From assembly GCA_039030125.1 (NCBI GenBank), contig JBCCEV010000003.1, positions 1-50,790 of the forward strand: a stretch of DNA of 50,790 nt, in the 5' to 3' direction. Below the pieces are notes generated by a model that saw only the letters and a list, made by a program, of their open reading frames with translations, searched no databases and was not told where the DNA came from. The position numbers were made by a program, and so were the translations under genes. This DNA is from Pseudomonadota bacterium. GTDB lineage: Bacteria; Pseudomonadota; Gammaproteobacteria; Ga0077536. Below are positions 8,959-16,360 of the stretch, piece after piece (the stretch's first letter is position 1; each line of letters starts with the position of its first letter).

Positions 8959-9747
8959 ATGAGTGAACCTTTGATTCAGCTTGCTCGCGATAGCCGCAAC
9001 GTCGTTACGGCCACCATGAACAGACCCGAGAAGAACAACGCTTACAACGGCGCGCTATTGCAAGCCCTAACCGGGGCGCTGGCGTCTTCACGCAATGATG
9101 ACGCGGTGCGCGCCTTGGTTGTTCGCGGCGCCGGTAAACACTTTCAGGCCGGCGCCGATCTCGATTGGATTGGCGCACTCAGCAAGCAGGACAGCGCTGC
9201 GAACCGAGCGGCCTCGGCGTTGACCAGCAATACGATGAAGGCCTTGTTTGAATTTCCGGTACCGACGATTGCACTGATCCAGGGCGCGTGTATCGGCGGC
9301 GGCACAGGGATCGCCGCATCTTGCGACATTGTGATCGCCGAGGAAAACGCGGTTTTCGCGATCAGCGAAGCACGCTGGGGAATGATCGCAAGCATCATTT
9401 TTCCGCAGCTGGTTCAGGCGATCGGTTTGCGACACGCGCGCCGTTACGCATTAAGCTGCGAGCGTTTTGACGCCACCCAAGCAAAGCTAATGGGTTTCGT
9501 TCACGAAGTAGTGAATCCTGGTGGCCTTGATGTAGCGCTCGAGGCACTCCTTGCCTCATTGCTGCGGGCCGGGCCGGAGGCGCTGCGAGAGAGCAAACGG
9601 TTGTTGTTAGCGCACCCCGATGTCCAATGGCACGAACTCGAAGCCGCGCATGCCAAGGCGCGTCAAAGCGCTGAGGCCGCAGAGGGGATTATGAGTTTCA
9701 AACAACGACGCGACCCATCCTGGTTCTCCCCGACCGATCTCCCTTAG
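8959..9747 (+). CDS. Enoyl-CoA hydratase/isomerase family (methylglutaconyl-CoA hydratase-like)
   Basis: NRPEKNNA, FQAGADL, GACIGGG, FAISEARWG. Confidence 0.9.
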   Translation: MSEPLIQLARDSRNVVTATMNRPEKNNAYNGALLQALTGALASSRNDDAVRALVVRGAGKHFQAGADLDWIGALSKQDSAANRAASALTSNTMKALFEFPVPTIALIQGACIGGGTGIAASCDIVIAEENAVFAISEARWGMIASIIFPQLVQAIGLRHARRYALSCERFDATQAKLMGFVHEVVNPGGLDVALEALLASLLRAGPEALRESKRLLLAHPDVQWHELEAAHAKARQSAEAAEGIMSFKQRRDPSWFSPTDLP

Positions 9748-10493
9748 CGCAGGTGCGCCGCCACGCATTTAATGCCGGGTTTCAAATTGAAGCGCTTCTT
9801 CACGATCCTAAGGCCGTGGCGATTGAGCAATCGCGCGAGCGTGAGGTAGCTGAAGTAATAGAGGTGTTCGGAGGGTTTGATCTCGGACCATTCGCCAAGA
9901 TCCCGGGGTACCCGCCAATGTCCGACGTCCGGGGTACCGATATCAATAATGCCGTCGGGTTTGAGGATCCTTTTCAGCTCTTCGACGAACGCCGGCAATT
10001 CGGGGACGTGCTCGATAACGTCATACATGGAGATCACATCGAAGTGTTGATCGGGAAAATCACAGCTTAAAAGTTGCCCGTGACTCAGGTTGGCCAAACC
10101 CAATGAGTGCTTGCCGTAGTTGATGGCCGCTGCTTCCAGATCGACGCCCCAGGCTTCGAAGCCGGCCTCGGTCGCGGCTTTTACAATGAATCCCGCAGAA
10201 CACCCCACGTCGAGCCAGCGGCCGGTGCGTTCGTACCGGCTTTTGATTCTGGCAACTCTGCCGTGCGCGCGTTTAAGCTTTTTCTCGGCTTTGGCGAGGT
10301 AGGTATCACTATAGGCGGCGTCGTAAGTTTCGCTAACGGCATCGAATCGCGGCCGAGGGTTGATAAGGACCAATGTGCAGCTCTGGCACCTCACGAAAGG
10401 CTCGCCTTGTTTTTCGAACAGGTCGGCGAAATCATCGCCGTCGCAAACGGGACAGCGGATTTTTTCAAAGTTAGCAGTGGCCGATCCGCTCAT
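9744..10493 (-). CDS. Class I SAM-dependent methyltransferase with N-terminal Zn-ribbon
   Basis: CPVC...CQSC, LDVGCSAGF, DVIEHV, LKPDG, EHLYYFS. Confidence 0.88.
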   Translation of the reverse strand: MSGSATANFEKIRCPVCDGDDFADLFEKQGEPFVRCQSCTLVLINPRPRFDAVSETYDAAYSDTYLAKAEKKLKRAHGRVARIKSRYERTGRWLDVGCSAGFIVKAATEAGFEAWGVDLEAAAINYGKHSLGLANLSHGQLLSCDFPDQHFDVISMYDVIEHVPELPAFVEELKRILKPDGIIDIGTPDVGHWRVPRDLGEWSEIKPSEHLYYFSYLTLARLLNRHGLRIVKKRFNLKPGIKCVAAHLR

Positions 10494-11188
10494 TCACCGA
10501 CGCTTTCAATCAACACACCCACCGAACCCCCGCGGGCCGTGAACGCCAGGTAGCGGTATTGGATTTGGTGCGACGCTACGTATTGTTGAAACGCCTTGAA
10601 TTCGTGTGCCTGCCAATTGGGATAATTGAAATACTCATCGAACACGATAACGGTGCCGGGGACAATGCGTTTAGCAAGGTTTGAGAAAATGGTGGCCGTG
10701 GAGGAGTAAAGGTCGCAATCGACGTGAATAAACCGCACCGGATCGTGCTCAGCGACGAGGAATGCCGGTAGAGTTTGGTCGAACAAGCCTTGCTGGAGCT
10801 GCACGTTGGCGGGAACCTTGGGCAAGCCTTCGCGCTTGAATTTACCCTGGGATTCGGTCGTACCCGCCCAATCTTCGGGCAGACCTTCAAAAGTATCGAA
10901 GCCGTAAATTGTCGTGCCCCCAAAGAGTTTGGCCAGCTTGCGGATGCTGCTACCGGTGGCGACGCCGAACTCAAGGCATAGACCATCGCGATTGGTCTGC
11001 TTTGCGCAGTATGCGAACAATTCGTCCTGTCCGCGGCAGATGATCGCCTCTGCCATGCGCGACATCACATAATCCGCCGAGTCCGCGCGCGCCCGGTTTT
11101 GCAGCTCCAGCAACAGGTCTTTGGAATAGAACTTGTGCACAAAGCGCCGATACCAGCGTTCGCGGAGGTTGGCGAAGGGGTTTTTCAT
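10490..11188 (-). CDS. TylF/MycF-like class I SAM-dependent methyltransferase
   Basis: LEFGVATGSS, GFDTFEGLPEDW, HVDCDLYSST, VFDEY; start set at ATG 11188 (MKNPF) rather than the longer ORF. Confidence 0.85.
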   Translation of the reverse strand: MKNPFANLRERWYRRFVHKFYSKDLLLELQNRARADSADYVMSRMAEAIICRGQDELFAYCAKQTNRDGLCLEFGVATGSSIRKLAKLFGGTTIYGFDTFEGLPEDWAGTTESQGKFKREGLPKVPANVQLQQGLFDQTLPAFLVAEHDPVRFIHVDCDLYSSTATIFSNLAKRIVPGTVIVFDEYFNYPNWQAHEFKAFQQYVASHQIQYRYLAFTARGGSVGVLIESVGE

Positions 11189-11297
11189 GGTTTTCCAAGA
11201 CCCGGAATAAGGCGCTATTTTAGCGATATCAAACAGCGCCGCGAGGCTTACTAAGTGATTAGAATAAGTATCTGTGGCGTAGGGGAGGAGACCTAAG

Positions 11298-12230
11298 GTG
11301 GGTATTGAGTTTACCCCTTCGGGAGTAATGACGATCACGACGGACTTCGGTCATCGTGGGCCGTTTGTCGGCACCATGAAAGGCGTGATCCTCAGCCGCG
11401 TACCGAGCACGCAAATCATCGATCTAACCCATGAGGTGTATGTCCATTGGCCGGCCGAGGCGGGATTTTGGCTGCGGCGCGCCTATTGTTATTTCCCCCG
11501 CGGCACCGTCCATTTAGCGGTCGTAGACCCGGGCGTGGGGACGGCCAGGGATATGTTGCTCGTCCTCGCCGACGGCCACGCCTTTATCGCTCCTGATAAT
11601 GGTTTGCTTGGCGAGGTCATTGAAAATTTGGACGGCGCGGTGCTTCGCTTGCAGGGCCGAGCCGTTGACAACCTGAAACTGGATAATGTCAGCGCCACCT
11701 TTCATGGCCGTGATGTGTTTGCGCCAATTGCAGCCGCGCTTGTCGCTGGAGACGCGTCGCCTGCCGACTTGGGCGAGCTTACCGAAGACTATATTCCTTC
11801 AATCGTTGAACCGCCGGAGCGCAGGGGGTCGCAGTGGATAGGGATCGTGATCACGTCTGATAACTTCGGCAATTTGATCACCAATATCGAATCGCAAGCG
11901 CTTGACGGTATGCGCAATCCCGTTGTGAGCGTTGGTGGGCGGGAAATTGCGGTGGCAAGAACGTATGGGGAGGTAACGCCCGGCAATTTTCTCGCATTGG
12001 TCAACTCGTTCGGCGTTGTCGAGATCGCTTGCGCCGAGGGTAGCGCCGCCCATGAACTTGGTATCGCGCGGGGAGCACCGGTAAGCCTCGCTGATGCGGG
12101 GCTAGTCGGAAAGACCAAGAGCCGCCAAGATGAACCAAACAGCGAACGCAGCATTGCCTCTCCCGCCCGGGCCGGCAGGTCTACCAATCCTCGGTTCCTT
12201 ATTATCGATGGGCCAACTCCCGCACCTTAG
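11298..12230 (+). CDS. DUF62 SAM hydrolase (SAM hydroxide adenosyltransferase; fluorinase/chlorinase superfamily)
   Basis: ITTDFG, VVDPGVGTAR, APDNG, SATFHGRDVF, DNFGNLITN. Confidence 0.92.
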   Translation: MGIEFTPSGVMTITTDFGHRGPFVGTMKGVILSRVPSTQIIDLTHEVYVHWPAEAGFWLRRAYCYFPRGTVHLAVVDPGVGTARDMLLVLADGHAFIAPDNGLLGEVIENLDGAVLRLQGRAVDNLKLDNVSATFHGRDVFAPIAAALVAGDASPADLGELTEDYIPSIVEPPERRGSQWIGIVITSDNFGNLITNIESQALDGMRNPVVSVGGREIAVARTYGEVTPGNFLALVNSFGVVEIACAEGSAAHELGIARGAPVSLADAGLVGKTKSRQDEPNSERSIASPARAGRSTNPRFLIIDGPTPAP

Positions 12231-13542
12231 TGTTCACCAAATCACGCGCAAATATGGCGACGTGTGTGGCATAAAGCTCGGTAACGTCTTTACCGTTTTT
12301 ATCTCCCATCCCCAGCTCCTTAATGAAGCGTTCAGCAAAACCACGGTCTCCGATCGGTGGATGGGCGAGATCATGGGCGCGCTATCGGGCGGCGGTGCCG
12401 ATATGGTTTTCATGAATTACGGTGATCAGTGGCGGCAAATGCGACGCTATGCGAACCATGATCTGTTCAACACCAAGCGTCTCGCGCAAATTCGCGTCGA
12501 GCACATGGAGCAGGTGGTTGCGGAATTGGTCGATGACCTCAAACGCTGCGCCGCCGAGCACGAGACCTGCGAGCCGTCGATACTGATCCCGGAGAGTAAC
12601 GCCGAACTTATTTTTCGTTGTTGCTTTGGTTTGCCGCAAGAACGCGAGGAAGGCTTTGCTGAATCGCGCAAAGCGCTTCTCGATATCACTTTCTGGGCAT
12701 TTGAAAACGCCAGCGCCACGAATCCCGCTGACTACCTCCCGCTGTTGTCTTTTTTACCGAACAATGCCGTGGGTAAAGCCCAGGAGGTGGCCGCCGATCG
12801 TGATCGCTTGATCGATGATTTGATCGACACCGTACGGCAACGTCCGGGGCGCAATGCCAACGCGCCAACGTGTTTGCTCGATGTGATGCTCGCTAAACAA
12901 GAATTGGGCGAAGTCGATCAACCGACCGTGCGCTATATGATGGGCGACATGCTGGCAGCCGGTATTGATACAACGGCCCAAACGCTCGCTTGGACCTTGC
13001 TGTTAGTCGCCAATCGGCCTGCCGTACAACAGCGAATCCACGAGGAAATAGATGCCATTGCGCCGGGTGAGGAGCCGCCCGATTATGCCAAGCGCGGCGA
13101 GTTACCTTATCTTGAGGCAGTGCTTCTTGAGAGTATGCGCTATCGCACGATCGGGCCGTTTGCGGTTCCGCATAAGGCCGTCGAGGACACCGAAATCGAC
13201 GGCTTTAGGATCCCCGCCGGCTCGCAAGTATTAGCCAATGTCTATTCAATTCATAACGACCCGCGATTCTGGGATCGCCCTGATCAATTCATTCCACAGC
13301 GTCATATCGGCGTAGAAAAATCAGAACGCAAGAAATATTCGACGCTCGTGCCATTCAGTGTGGGTCGCCGTCAATGTCCGGGTCAGAATTTCGCGATGAT
13401 TTCCATGTGGTTGCATCTAACCCGGATATTCCACGGCTTCCAATTGTCGCCTTCATCGAGCGGGCTGTTGCCCGAAGATGAAGTGTTCGGTCTGACCGTC
13501 TCTCCCAAGCCCTACAAACTCACGGTTACCGCCCGGCACTAA
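12130..13542 (+). CDS. Cytochrome P450 (eukaryote-like E-class)
   Basis: PPGP hinge, I-helix AGIDTT, ExxR (ESMR), PERF-like FIPQRH, heme-binding PFSVGRRQCPG. Confidence 0.95.
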   Translation: MNQTANAALPLPPGPAGLPILGSLLSMGQLPHLSVHQITRKYGDVCGIKLGNVFTVFISHPQLLNEAFSKTTVSDRWMGEIMGALSGGGADMVFMNYGDQWRQMRRYANHDLFNTKRLAQIRVEHMEQVVAELVDDLKRCAAEHETCEPSILIPESNAELIFRCCFGLPQEREEGFAESRKALLDITFWAFENASATNPADYLPLLSFLPNNAVGKAQEVAADRDRLIDDLIDTVRQRPGRNANAPTCLLDVMLAKQELGEVDQPTVRYMMGDMLAAGIDTTAQTLAWTLLLVANRPAVQQRIHEEIDAIAPGEEPPDYAKRGELPYLEAVLLESMRYRTIGPFAVPHKAVEDTEIDGFRIPAGSQVLANVYSIHNDPRFWDRPDQFIPQRHIGVEKSERKKYSTLVPFSVGRRQCPGQNFAMISMWLHLTRIFHGFQLSPSSSGLLPEDEVFGLTVSPKPYKLTVTARH

Positions 13543-14368
13543 TACCGCGGGTATGCGGGCCCAGGGCGCTTAGCAGCAGGCCAACCTTCACGATGTAGTT
13601 GGAGATTAAATGGGGCGCGGCAAACGTTTCGAGGGCTTCGACGACGGCAGGCCTGGAACTGGTCTTGGACGGGATCTCAATGAGGCCAGCCAGCGCTCGG
13701 CCTTGCTGATGAGCGTGGTCTTGCACGGTGGCGATGCAGCTTGCGATCTCGTCGCGATAAGGTCTGAAACCTCGAACAGTTTCGCTAAGGAAGGCCGGCC
13801 AGTGCGCGAGATGCCGCGGTACGCCTGCGATCACCGGGCCAAGCGGGCGGCCGGTCCCAAGCGCCTCTAATGCCCGCGCATCGGCGCGCAGGGCCGCGCT
13901 CATTTTCGATTCAGGGATCAATTCCGGTAGTGTCCCAATGGCCGCCTCGGTGTTTGCCATCGCTGTTGTTTTGGGCGCTGGCGAGGCCGGCTGCCCCTCA
14001 AGGGCCGCGAGCAAGGCGCACAGCGCGATAAGGTTAGCCGGGTTTGTTCTCTGGTAGTTTTTCAGAACGTCTTCGATCCTCAACCACGCTTCGGTATCGA
14101 GGGAGGCCGTATTGAAGTCAATGGAAAACGAGGCCAGTTTCGCCGGCCGCTCGAAATCCCGCACGCTACTCGCCGCAGATCCAAGATAGCCATCGGTATA
14201 CAGTGGCCTTAGGGACTTCCAAACCCAGCCCAAGGCCCCATCGAAGGCCGCCAGATGGCGCCAGATAAGGTTCACCGTGGGCGCGTTCAAGACCGTGCGA
14301 ATATCTTCATACAGCTCGGCGATTTCACCGGCAGCGGCGTCTTCGGTGACGCTCGGAAGTTTATCCAC
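13526..14368 (-). CDS. Hypothetical protein, DehI-like (group I haloacid dehalogenase-like) two-repeat protein
   Basis: Repeat 1 EDAAAGEIAELYEDIR..LNAPTVNLIWRHLA..W..LRP; repeat 2 IPESKM...PRHLAHWPAFL...FRP. Confidence 0.55.
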   Translation of the reverse strand: MDKLPSVTEDAAAGEIAELYEDIRTVLNAPTVNLIWRHLAAFDGALGWVWKSLRPLYTDGYLGSAASSVRDFERPAKLASFSIDFNTASLDTEAWLRIEDVLKNYQRTNPANLIALCALLAALEGQPASPAPKTTAMANTEAAIGTLPELIPESKMSAALRADARALEALGTGRPLGPVIAGVPRHLAHWPAFLSETVRGFRPYRDEIASCIATVQDHAHQQGRALAGLIEIPSKTSSRPAVVEALETFAAPHLISNYIVKVGLLLSALGPHTRGISAGR

Positions 14369-14376
14369 GCGCGTGA

Positions 14377-15252
14377 CTACAACCTTGCAATCACTTCATC
14401 GCCGAGTTTCTTAACGTAGTCACTGATGTCCGATTCTGTAGCGCTCAAGTTGAACAGCTCACCGCCAGTGGTCGGAGACAATGCAATAAGACGCTCGATG
14501 CCCAAGTCTTGATAACGTTTGGCTAAGTCCAAATCGATGTTGCCAAACGGGGTGACGCTGAGCTCAAGCTTGCCCAGGTGCGCGGGGCGGTTGCCGCGGG
14601 CCAAGGCCGCCTCCAAGCCTTGCACGCACTCAGCGGTCGCTTCCGGGGACAGACCAAAGCCGTACCAACCATGACCGTGACTTACCGTTCGTTCAAATGC
14701 GCCCTGGACGTGACCGCCGAAGATCACGGGGGGACCGCCCTTTTGCAATGGTCTGGGCAAGGCTTTCACTCCAGCGAAAGAAACGAAATCGCCGTCGTAG
14801 CTGGGGTCCTCTTCGTTCCAAATGCTTTGCATCGCTTCGAGGTACTCCACAGTACGCGGACCTTTATCTTTAAAAGAAACGCCAAGCGCATCGAATTCCG
14901 CTTTGAGATATCCGATACCAACGCCAAACAGCAGACGGCCACCGCACAATACATCAAGGCTGGCCATCTCCTTGGCAAGCACCAGCGGGTTACGCTGGGG
15001 CAGGATGATGATCCCCGTGCCAAATTTGATTTGCTGGGTCTGAGCAGCCAGCCAGGCAAACGAAATATTGGGATCAAGCATTGGGTAATCTGGTGGTAAT
15101 GGCGAGCCTTCAACTTGCGGATCTGGAAGCACGATGTGTTCACCGGCCCACAATGAATCAAAGCCTGCCGCTTCGGCTATTTTTGCGACGTGGCTGCTCG
15201 CTAACGGATCGCTGAGTGGCCCCATATTGATCCCAAAAAGTCCAAATTCCAA
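14377..15252 (-). CDS. LLM-class (luciferase-like) probably F420-dependent oxidoreductase, Rv2161c-like
   Basis: AEAAGFDSLWAGEH, LPQRNPLVLAKEMASLDVLCGGR..GVGIGYLKAEF; TTG start with GGAGG upstream. Confidence 0.88.
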   Translation of the reverse strand: MEFGLFGINMGPLSDPLASSHVAKIAEAAGFDSLWAGEHIVLPDPQVEGSPLPPDYPMLDPNISFAWLAAQTQQIKFGTGIIILPQRNPLVLAKEMASLDVLCGGRLLFGVGIGYLKAEFDALGVSFKDKGPRTVEYLEAMQSIWNEEDPSYDGDFVSFAGVKALPRPLQKGGPPVIFGGHVQGAFERTVSHGHGWYGFGLSPEATAECVQGLEAALARGNRPAHLGKLELSVTPFGNIDLDLAKRYQDLGIERLIALSPTTGGELFNLSATESDISDYVKKLGDEVIARL

Positions 15253-15320
15253 AAGCTCAACCCTCCATACAGCGTGCTGCCGATTATAGGTAACTCGGGC
15301 TTCGTTCGATTGCGCCAGGC

Positions 15321-15350
15321 AAAAAAAAAGGGCTCCCTGGCAGGAGCCCT
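15321..15350 (-). terminator. Rho-independent terminator
   Basis: Minus strand AGGGCTCC-TGCCAG-GGAGCCC followed by 9 T. Confidence 0.9.
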
Positions 15351-15480
15351 AAATAACTCGTCGCGTAAGCTAAGGGCTGGCTTGATCGCGTCGATTCACT
15401 CCAACGACTTGATTCGCACCGCTCCTAGAAGCGCCGCAAAGAAGTCGTTGAAGCACAGTGCATCGGTTGCGAGATGCACG
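15321..15480 (-). ncRNA. Candidate sigma-54-dependent small RNA (~160 nt)
   Basis: Lies between a -24/-12 promoter and an intrinsic terminator; 5' hairpin GTGCATC-N8-GATGCAC at predicted +1; long stem CTTCAACGACTT...AAGTCGTTGGAG; no credible ORF. Confidence 0.65.
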
Positions 15481-15490
15481 AGTTCGACTA

Positions 15491-15507
15491 AGCAAGCCCG
15501 ATGCCAG
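15491..15507 (-). promoter_or_regulatory. Sigma-54 (-24/-12) promoter
   Basis: Minus strand CTGGCATCGGGCTTGCT: GG-N10-GC, matching the TGGCA...TTGCW consensus. Confidence 0.75.
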
Positions 15508-15580
15508 CTTGGCTATCACGTTGTTTTGTCCGGTTTTTTGTATTTGACGTGCGTTTACCGGCCGGGCATCCGCGAGAAAG

Positions 15581-15640
15581 TGTAAAAATCCTTTAACAAA
15601 ATGCTCATGCTAAGTGCGTGATTTTCTGGCGATTTTTACA
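15581..15640. promoter_or_regulatory. Putative enhancer-binding-protein sites
   Basis: TGTAAA-AATCCT-TTAACA at 15581-15598; TGTAAAAATC (15581-15590) and GATTTTTACA (15631-15640) form a perfect 10-bp inverted repeat 100-160 nt upstream of the predicted start. Confidence 0.5.
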
Positions 15641-16360
15641 CTAATCGGTTGGATTCACGGTGAGTTCGCGCAGATCCAGATAGCTTCCCGAGGGTGCATT
15701 TCTGATGGCACTGAGCGCCTGACCGATCCGCTGGGCGACGATCTCGGGGGGCGGCATGCCGGCGGTTCCCATCGCTTGTTGAAGACGGGCCGTGGACGAG
15801 AACCTCGTTGCATCGACCGTTTTAATGTAGTCCTGCATCGCGGTGTGGATCAGGCCTGGCGCCAATGCGCACAGGTGGGTTGCCGGCAGTTCATCGCGAT
15901 AGAGCTGGGTCAACATATTGAGCGTCGCTTTTGACAGCGCATAACTCCCCCAACCGCGATTTCCATTAACGCCCGCGCCGGAGGACACTAAAACGACTTG
16001 CTCCGGCGGCGTGTCAAGCTGGCACATCCAGTCCAAGATAATTTTGTTCGCCCACACATTAACTTCCATCGCCGCGCGAATATCTTGCAGCGGGGTGTCG
16101 ACCATATCTCTGAACGGCTGCAACACTCCGGCGTTGAGGTACGCCAGATGGATGGTCCCGCGCGATGACTCGATCGTCGAGAGCGTTTTCTCAAGTGCGG
16201 CAGTGTCCGCGAGGTCACATTGCATGCTAATCAACGCATCATCCGTGAGCGCTGGGCGCCGCCGGCTGATCCCCAATACCGCGTCGTCGGTTTCGAGATG
16301 GTAGCGGGCAAGCGCCTCACCAAGGCCACTACTGTGTCCCGTGATCAAGACCTGTCTCAT
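15641..16360 (-). CDS. Short-chain dehydrogenase/reductase (sepiapterin/benzil reductase-like)
   Basis: ITGHSSGLG, NAG, SSGA, YALSK, APGLIHTAMQ. Confidence 0.9.
   Translation of the reverse strand: MRQVLITGHSSGLGEALARYHLETDDAVLGISRRRPALTDDALISMQCDLADTAALEKTLSTIESSRGTIHLAYLNAGVLQPFRDMVDTPLQDIRAAMEVNVWANKIILDWMCQLDTPPEQVVLVSSGAGVNGNRGWGSYALSKATLNMLTQLYRDELPATHLCALAPGLIHTAMQDYIKTVDATRFSSTARLQQAMGTAGMPPPEIVAQRIGQALSAIRNAPSGSYLDLRELTVNPTD

Follow-up and report, generated by a model that had tools for sequence, protein, structure and literature searches.

A gene-less unit on the minus strand of a gammaproteobacterial genome may be a functional small RNA whose synthesis depends on the response regulator PrsR and on sigma-54, a reading to which we give an even chance. 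The unit lies at 15321-15507 of the stretch analysed here, 50,790 nt of a Pseudomonadota bacterium (lineage Ga0077536; assembly GCA_039030125.1, contig JBCCEV010000003.1, positions 1 to 50,790), which we call the window, between a short-chain dehydrogenase (SDR) gene and a gene for a luciferase-like oxidoreductase (LLM). The region upstream of the unit's promoter appears, by its motifs and their spacing, to match most of the PEP-CTERM box, and the predicted transcript is strongly folded and ends in an intrinsic terminator. A preliminary description, made from the letters of the window, had listed a sigma-54 promoter, three stems, a single-stranded segment and a terminator, and had taken them for a new trans-acting, possibly Hfq-dependent regulator. 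Every element listed there was confirmed on the minus strand, within 15321-15507; the interpretation is supported in part. The host genome is a metagenome-assembled genome (MAG) of 88% completeness, 260 contigs and 4.08 Mb.

Promoter and upstream motifs

The promoter consists of TGGCAT (15506-15501), the five-base spacer CGGGC and TTGCT (15495-15491). Tested against TGGCAC-N5-TTGCW, its GG and GC elements stand exactly ten bases apart, as in -24/-12 promoters. Taking the C of the GC element as position -12 would put the transcription start near 15480, which gives a predicted RNA of about 160 nt. A sigma-54-type promoter with this start had been proposed before, and we found it directly ahead of the structured, terminator-ended unit, with the match 11 nt in front of the first hairpin. 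The genome encodes RpoN (DNA-binding domain at 234.7 bits, contig C186) as well as ten full Sigma54_activat enhancer-binding proteins, none of which lies in the window.

The strict sigma-54 pattern has ten matches in the genome, seven intergenic and three inside coding DNA. Given that about nine tenths of the genome is coding and that only three matches fall there, well under one chance match would be expected between genes. The six intergenic matches other than that of the unit stand 25-110 nt upstream of flagellar, PEP-CTERM protein and PEP-CTERM-system or exopolysaccharide (EPS) glycosyltransferase genes; that is, they precede genes typical of sigma-54 regulons. A first pass for 8-mers shared among the sigma-54 upstream regions of the genome was uninformative. 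In two other genera of the same bacterial family (G073, locus L026; G084, locus L027), the 18-mer GCTGGCATCGGGCTTGCT, identical to the window promoter including its spacer, stands about 45-50 nt upstream of open reading frames (ORFs) with a signal peptide. Among all sigma-54 promoters of the family, chance should produce about two identities of this kind. Judged from this placement, the copies show that the exact sequence of the window promoter occupies a promoter position elsewhere.

The PEP-CTERM box is described for proteobacterial PEP-CTERM genes in those passages of Haft et al. (2006, PMC1569441) that deal with it as follows: (I) a 17-nt motif 1, which has TTTACA as its 3' end and can be present more than once, is separated from a downstream sigma-54 motif by 62.8 ± 10.6 nt (range 32-92); (II) the response regulator PrsR is predicted to bind motif 1; (III) a few box sites precede genes for other than PEP-CTERM proteins. 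In the window, a TTTACA matches the 3' end of the published motif 1, and its inverted copy lies 52 nt further upstream (15640-15634). The spacer from TTTACA to TGGCAT is 74 nt (15580-15507), inside the published range. The two copies belong to a perfect 12-nt inverted repeat, AGTGTAAAAATC-N40-GATTTTTACACT, at 15642-15579, the distal half-site of which takes in the final two bases of the SDR stop codon. Any such 12-nt inverted repeat arose in 74 of 3000 mononucleotide shuffles of 15300-15720. The exact 12-mer AGTGTAAAAATC is found nowhere else in the genome, and an exact scan of the genome contig collection for the inverted repeat returned one chance match, in an AT-rich Mycoplasmopsis.

Within the 4.08 Mb of the genome, TTTTACA/TGTAAAA occurs 166 times, and two copies within 150 nt of each other are found at three places only: in the window and on contigs C148 and C225, each time beside a sigma-54 promoter. 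The genes at the latter two places encode PEP-CTERM proteins, as judged by their C-terminal sequence and by NCBIfam matches; the C148 protein scores above the curated PEP-CTERM domain cut-off, and the C225 protein has a sub-threshold family match only. The genome also encodes PrsR (TIGR02915, 691.2 bits against a cut-off of 502.6) and PrsK (TIGR02916, 669.5 bits against 300), in tandem on contig C229, together with two exosortases. Because the promoter carries the motif and the spacing of the box, PrsR can be proposed as its specific activator.

The same arrangement recurs in relatives. The canonical pattern TGTC-N6-TTTTACA-N45-75-TGGC-N8-TGC has 46 matches in 32 of 81 genomes of the bacterial family and none in the control; at 18 of the 30 canonical loci fetched it is followed by ORFs fitting the PEP-CTERM pattern, and several more ORFs look PEP-CTERM-like but were truncated or escaped the pattern. 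The composite TTTTACA-N48-78-strict sigma-54 pattern has 13 matches in 12 of the 81 genomes and none when read backwards. Like the window, two of the 11 composite matches in relatives are without TGTC, one ahead of a signal-peptide ORF and one ahead of a CsbD-like gene.

At the second of the composite sites without TGTC (L301, G017:C1:5035126-5035222), the gene codes for an 81-codon CsbD-like stress protein, which suggests that the reach of the box extends beyond PEP-CTERM genes. On contig C157 of genome G069 (L317), a canonical box precedes a 60-codon ORF made up almost entirely of a signal peptide and a PEP-CTERM tail.

The predicted RNA and its terminator

The three hairpins, the A/U-rich linker and the GC-rich terminator with U9 that had been pointed out earlier were all found, at the minus-strand places collected in Table 1. 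The 162-nt RNA has a minimum free energy (MFE) of -71.2 kcal/mol, compared with -48.6 ± 3.7 kcal/mol among 200 dinucleotide shuffles, not one of which folds as stably (z = -6.14). The 131-nt body that remains when the terminator is left off reaches -53.9 kcal/mol, a value matched by only 4 of 1500 random 131-mers of like GC content from the genome. The structure of the RNA lies far beyond chance. The MFE and centroid structures agree on hairpin 1, with pair probabilities near 1; by unpaired probabilities, hairpin 3 is more accessible than any other part, its loop CAGCCCUUA being the most open segment. Six of the 51 pairs are G.U and no helix mismatch is A.C, a bias through which the minus-strand transcript folds 8 kcal/mol better than the plus-strand one. 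This pattern favours a structure formed by the RNA, in the orientation given, but only modestly, as the folding algorithm tends by itself to count G.U as pairs.

Table 1. Coordinates of the unit and its upstream motifs in the window, and of the box-driven RNA family in relatives
Feature	Position	Strand	Description
Distal enhancer-like half-site	15631..15642	(-)	AGTGTAAAAATC; contains TGTAAAA, inverted copy of the proximal site
Proximal enhancer site	15579..15598	(-)	TGTTAAAGGATTTTTACACT; 3' part TTTACA at 15586-15581
Sigma-54 promoter	15491..15507	(-)	CTGGCATCGGGCTTGCT; GG 15505-15504, GC 15493-15492
Hairpin 1	15458..15479	(-)	7-bp stem GTGCATC/GATGCAC, loop UCGCAACC, from about +2
Hairpin 2 (long)	15398..15454	(-)	Helices of 13, 6 and 5 bp; apical loop CUAG; five G.U pairs
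Hairpin 3	15358..15394	(-)	Helices of 3, 4 and 4 bp; 9-nt loop CAGCCCUUA
Single-stranded A/U-rich linker	15351..15357	(-)	AGUUAUU, directly ahead of the terminator
Intrinsic terminator	15321..15350	(-)	9-bp GC-rich stem and 4-nt loop (15350-15329), T9 15329-15321
Family M loci	L345:1610-1798 (G086), L347, L348, L346, L349-L353, L334 (G017), L306:1310-1493 (G021)		Alignment A4

Between 15100 and 15800 there are three terminator-like sites, against 0.8 ± 0.8 in shuffles; that at 15321-15350 is the strongest and the only one downstream of the SDR gene. With no further terminator behind the SDR gene, the SDR mRNA probably ends here as well, and the RNA could then also arise by processing of that mRNA. 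No competing antiterminator fold was found: withholding the 3' arm of the terminator leaves its 5' arm without a partner and does not alter the other hairpins. The LLM gene had been credited with a promoter of its own; its TATAAT is present (15288-15283), but a usable -35 element is absent and no sigma-70 promoter was called in 15100-15800. At several unrelated loci of five other family genomes (L002, L008, L009, L010 and L015), the T-run of a terminator is followed by GCCTGGCGC, as in the window at 15310-15329 (TTTTTGCCTGGCGC); these loci are an ascertained sample, found via their similarity to the query.

No Rfam family matched at gathering thresholds over the whole window. At E up to 10, the region 15200-15700 gave five weak Rfam matches of 13-21 bits, all on the terminator end, and no tRNA or tmRNA was found. 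By BLAST, the unit is single-copy in its own genome and nothing matched in 60 relatives; the 81 family genomes returned only short matches, at E 0.001 or weaker, and the 15 such loci inspected (nine for the terminator region, six for the upstream or promoter region) proved to be terminators, other promoters or coding DNA. Plasmid and phage collections held no homologue of the unit. A covariance model of the unit body (R1) found only itself in its own genome, and its only match in the 81 family genomes, at 22 bits, was rejected as it lies antisense inside a 414-codon ORF.

The flanking genes led to the same result. LLM loci were found 78 times in genome contigs and 80 times in metagenome contigs, and the unit is absent at the ten closest orthologues with upstream sequence that were inspected (64-75% identity). 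Peptide patterns revealed no close relative of the SDR gene; 11 SDR orthologues of the family (47-54% identity) have other genes behind them, most of these convergent, and not the unit.

A box-driven RNA ahead of metY in relatives

Behind PEP-CTERM boxes in relatives, we found a gene-less unit of about 180 nt that ends in a terminator and is followed by metY (family M, Table 1). It was first met at 2 of the 30 canonical loci and at one further composite match, and two more canonical matches were fetched separately. BLAST and nhmmer together place it in 10 of 11 genomes of one genus and in one of two genomes of a second, with its 3' part in one genome of a third; in the genomes where it is found it always precedes a same-strand metY. 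All ten copies with upstream sequence have TGTC (once CGTC)-N6-YTTTACA, a spacer of about 61-62 nt and TGGCA-N6-TTGC. The alignment of 11 copies supports a structure of 38 pairs, in which 94.4% of cells are paired. Double changes are seen at 16 of these pairs, compared with 5.7 ± 1.7 in 500 shuffles (none as high) and with 2-6 when the partners are slid. Family M corresponds to no Rfam family, the best match being a sub-threshold 25-bit one to GcvB in one genome. Going by these alignments and promoter matches, PEP-CTERM-box promoters in this bacterial family do drive a conserved, structured, gene-less RNA.

Family M resembles the window RNA in the bacterial family in which it occurs, in its promoter type and in the same-strand metabolic gene downstream. 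The parts also come in the same order, with a small hairpin at the 5' end, then a long one and a third, and after these a U-rich linker and the terminator. Unlike the window RNA, family M has canonical TGTC-N6-YTTTACA boxes at 61-62 nt and is conserved, with covariation. Homology between the two was rejected, the best nhmmer match (E 0.21) being located elsewhere in the genome. A covariance model of family M (R2) scored 6.4 bits on the window at 15319-15458, mostly on the terminator, and had no match in the window's own genome at E below 0.98.

Function, alternatives and surroundings

According to the reading put forward here, PrsK and PrsR, together with RpoN, would switch on an RNA of about 160 nt (about 15480-15321, minus strand) alongside PEP-CTERM surface proteins, with expression in an EPS or floc programme. 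The RNA would end at the strong intrinsic terminator that it shares with the upstream SDR gene, and would most likely act as a trans-acting regulatory RNA. Its likeliest contact points would be the loop of hairpin 3 for mRNAs and the A/U linker and U-tail for Hfq; an A/U-rich linker with a U tail is the usual Hfq-binding module. The genome encodes Hfq, and the unit has the 3' end expected of an Hfq-dependent small RNA, namely an unpaired AGUUAUU ahead of a 9-bp stem followed by U9. For the window RNA we infer transcription, dependence on PrsR, action in trans, binding of Hfq and any target.

Sigma-54-dependent small RNAs are a known kind. They include Qrr (activated by LuxO), GlmY (GlrR), CrcZ and CrcY (CbrB) and NrsZ (NtrC), and Qrr, GlmY, CrcZ and NrsZ are each the output node of a two-component system. 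The window RNA shares with them an enhancer-dependent promoter, a short structured RNA and an intrinsic terminator, with Hfq encoded in the genome. It differs in that it matches no Rfam model, belongs to no known family and has PrsR as its proposed activator, and from CrcZ also in having no CA-rich repeats. Inspection by eye revealed no LuxO, GlrR or NtrC site. MicL and DapZ are 3'-untranslated-region small RNAs with a promoter of their own; like them, the window RNA lies downstream of a coding gene, shares its terminator and has an internal promoter, but that promoter stands in the spacer after the stop codon and not inside the coding region.

The window's promoter region, in turn, is like the PEP-CTERM box in having the TTTACA element twice, a spacer within range, a strong -24/-12 promoter, and PrsK, PrsR and exosortases encoded in the genome. 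It is unlike the box in its missing 5' TGTC half and its inverted second motif copy, and in leading to a gene-less RNA of about 160 nt and a terminator, not to a PEP-CTERM ORF. PrsK/PrsR is known only as a predicted activator of PEP-CTERM surface-protein genes, and the window RNA would be the first tied to its regulon; full-text searches on PEP-CTERM, covering main texts, found no small RNA driven by a PEP-CTERM box or by PrsR.

One of the other strict sigma-54 promoters lies in a region that bears on GlmY. On contig C47 (L284:3117-10405), the order is glmS, a GlrR-like sigma-54 activator (562 bits, below the cut-off of 763), a BarA-like hybrid kinase, the promoter and a TIGR03013-type PEP-CTERM-system glycosyltransferase, a sub-threshold match in an ORF cut by the contig end. 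To have a GlrR-like regulator beside glmS in a bacterium that is not an enterobacterium may be a sign of a GlmY-like circuit. A GlmY-like identity of the window RNA itself was rejected, given that it has no Rfam GlmY or GlmZ match and no special pairing with the glmS leader; nor were TGTC-N10-GACA sites seen by eye.

Several results weigh against a PrsR-dependent RNA in the window. First, the strict sigma-54 pattern taken alone is not enriched genome-wide, its ten matches comparing with 7 when the genome is reversed and with 1-21 when the pattern is scrambled in eight ways. Second, the upstream site lacks the full 17-nt motif 1, which in the family takes the form TGTC-N6-TTTTACA: the window 17-mer is GTTAAAGGATTTTTACA, with GTTA at the position of TGTC and TGTT only if one extra base is allowed, while 16 of 17 compiled canonical sites of the family start with TGTC or CGTC, the comparison being with these compiled sites and the published text. 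The 74-nt spacer, too, is one standard deviation above the published mean of 62.8. Third, targets were sought with a home-made accessibility-weighted duplex scan, which covered 2256 of 14037 start regions and had 2252 start regions as background. The candidates, 13 in number, were eight PEP-CTERM genes, the gene of the EPS glycosyltransferase, glmS and the regulator next to it, LLM and SDR; all stayed within background, and not one scored beyond its best 19%. Finally, going by the searches above, the window RNA is an orphan and seemingly species-specific, so that neither conservation nor covariation supports it; and since model R2 gives it only 6.4 bits, family M is a precedent by analogy, not by homology.

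These points give some room to a relic, in which a PEP-CTERM-type promoter region lost its gene, or was duplicated without one, and still fires, or fired in the past, into non-functional sequence up to the terminator of the SDR gene. A relic would suit a species-specific unit with a degenerate left enhancer half and no target in the scan; PEP-CTERM genes are single-gene units with rapid turnover and their boxes precede varied genes, and the SDR gene would need a terminator anyway. What leftover sequence would not be expected to show, however, is a fold at z -6.1 that ranks in the best 0.3% of genomic 131-mers, or six G.U against zero A.C within its helices. The two 12-nt enhancer arms are still perfect copies, and the remnant of a PEP-CTERM ORF was rejected, as tblastn with eight PEP-CTERM proteins and scans of the frames with hidden Markov models (HMMs) detected no credible coding trace. 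We consider a relic unlikely.

The sigma-54 promoter might instead serve the LLM operon, with the structured RNA and its terminator as a conditional attenuator in a cis-acting leader. The LLM gene is indeed on the same strand and begins 69 nt past the terminator, its own promoter amounts to a lone TATAAT that the promoter scan did not call, and the conserved box-driven RNA of relatives likewise always precedes a same-strand metY. An attenuator should have an alternative fold, yet none competes with the terminator, which is strong in its 9-bp GC-rich stem and U9; no riboswitch family matches, and the ten LLM orthologue loci inspected (64-75% identity) have no such leader. A leader seems quite improbable to us.

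Chance would be another account, in which the promoter match is fortuitous and the structured stretch belongs to the SDR mRNA as its 3' untranslated region and terminator. It fits the genome-wide frequency of the strict pattern, which is about that of its scrambled versions, and the fact that no other terminator follows the SDR gene. However, it needs a match 11 nt before hairpin 1, a TTTACA at box distance and a perfect inverted copy all to coincide, at one of only three places in the genome with paired TTTTACA, all of them at sigma-54 promoters, and for a composite pattern with no match in reversed controls from 81 genomes. This we regard as very unlikely. A gene for a small protein is hardly credible: a 26-codon GTG frame (15479-15399) and a 12-codon ATG frame in hairpin 1 are open, but neither has a Shine-Dalgarno sequence, their starts are buried in hairpin 1, and the frames overlapping the unit had no NCBIfam match at E up to 10 and no Pfam match below E 0.2 (two longer frames were run against Pfam, one with a sub-threshold match at E 0.21).

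A small RNA under a PEP-CTERM box would give the PrsK/PrsR-exosortase system a post-transcriptional output, and would be a compact reporter of PrsK/PrsR activity. As an orphan, the window RNA alone is weak evidence for such an output; together with the conserved box-driven RNA of relatives, it makes the idea directly testable. We put forward, as a tentative possibility, that PrsK/PrsR also has a riboregulatory arm in this bacterial family, in which box/sigma-54 promoters drive the conserved metY-adjacent RNA and lineage-specific RNAs such as that of the window. If so, such RNAs would couple the floc or EPS programme to metabolism. PEP-CTERM proteins are needed for floc formation in wastewater bacteria, as stated in the passages of PMC9850573 concerned with it.

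The unit occupies a 388-nt minus-strand gap between the stop codon of the SDR gene (16360-15641) and the TTG start of the LLM gene (15252-14377), which encodes an F420-type oxidoreductase of the TIGR03619 type and opens an operon at 15252-13526. The adjoining cluster (9747-15252) comprises two methyltransferases, a SAM hydroxide adenosyltransferase (SAM_HAT), a cytochrome P450, a 280-codon protein with no family match and the LLM oxidoreductase. This small cluster could serve tailoring or catabolism; further upstream of it come hydantoinase A/B and an amidase.

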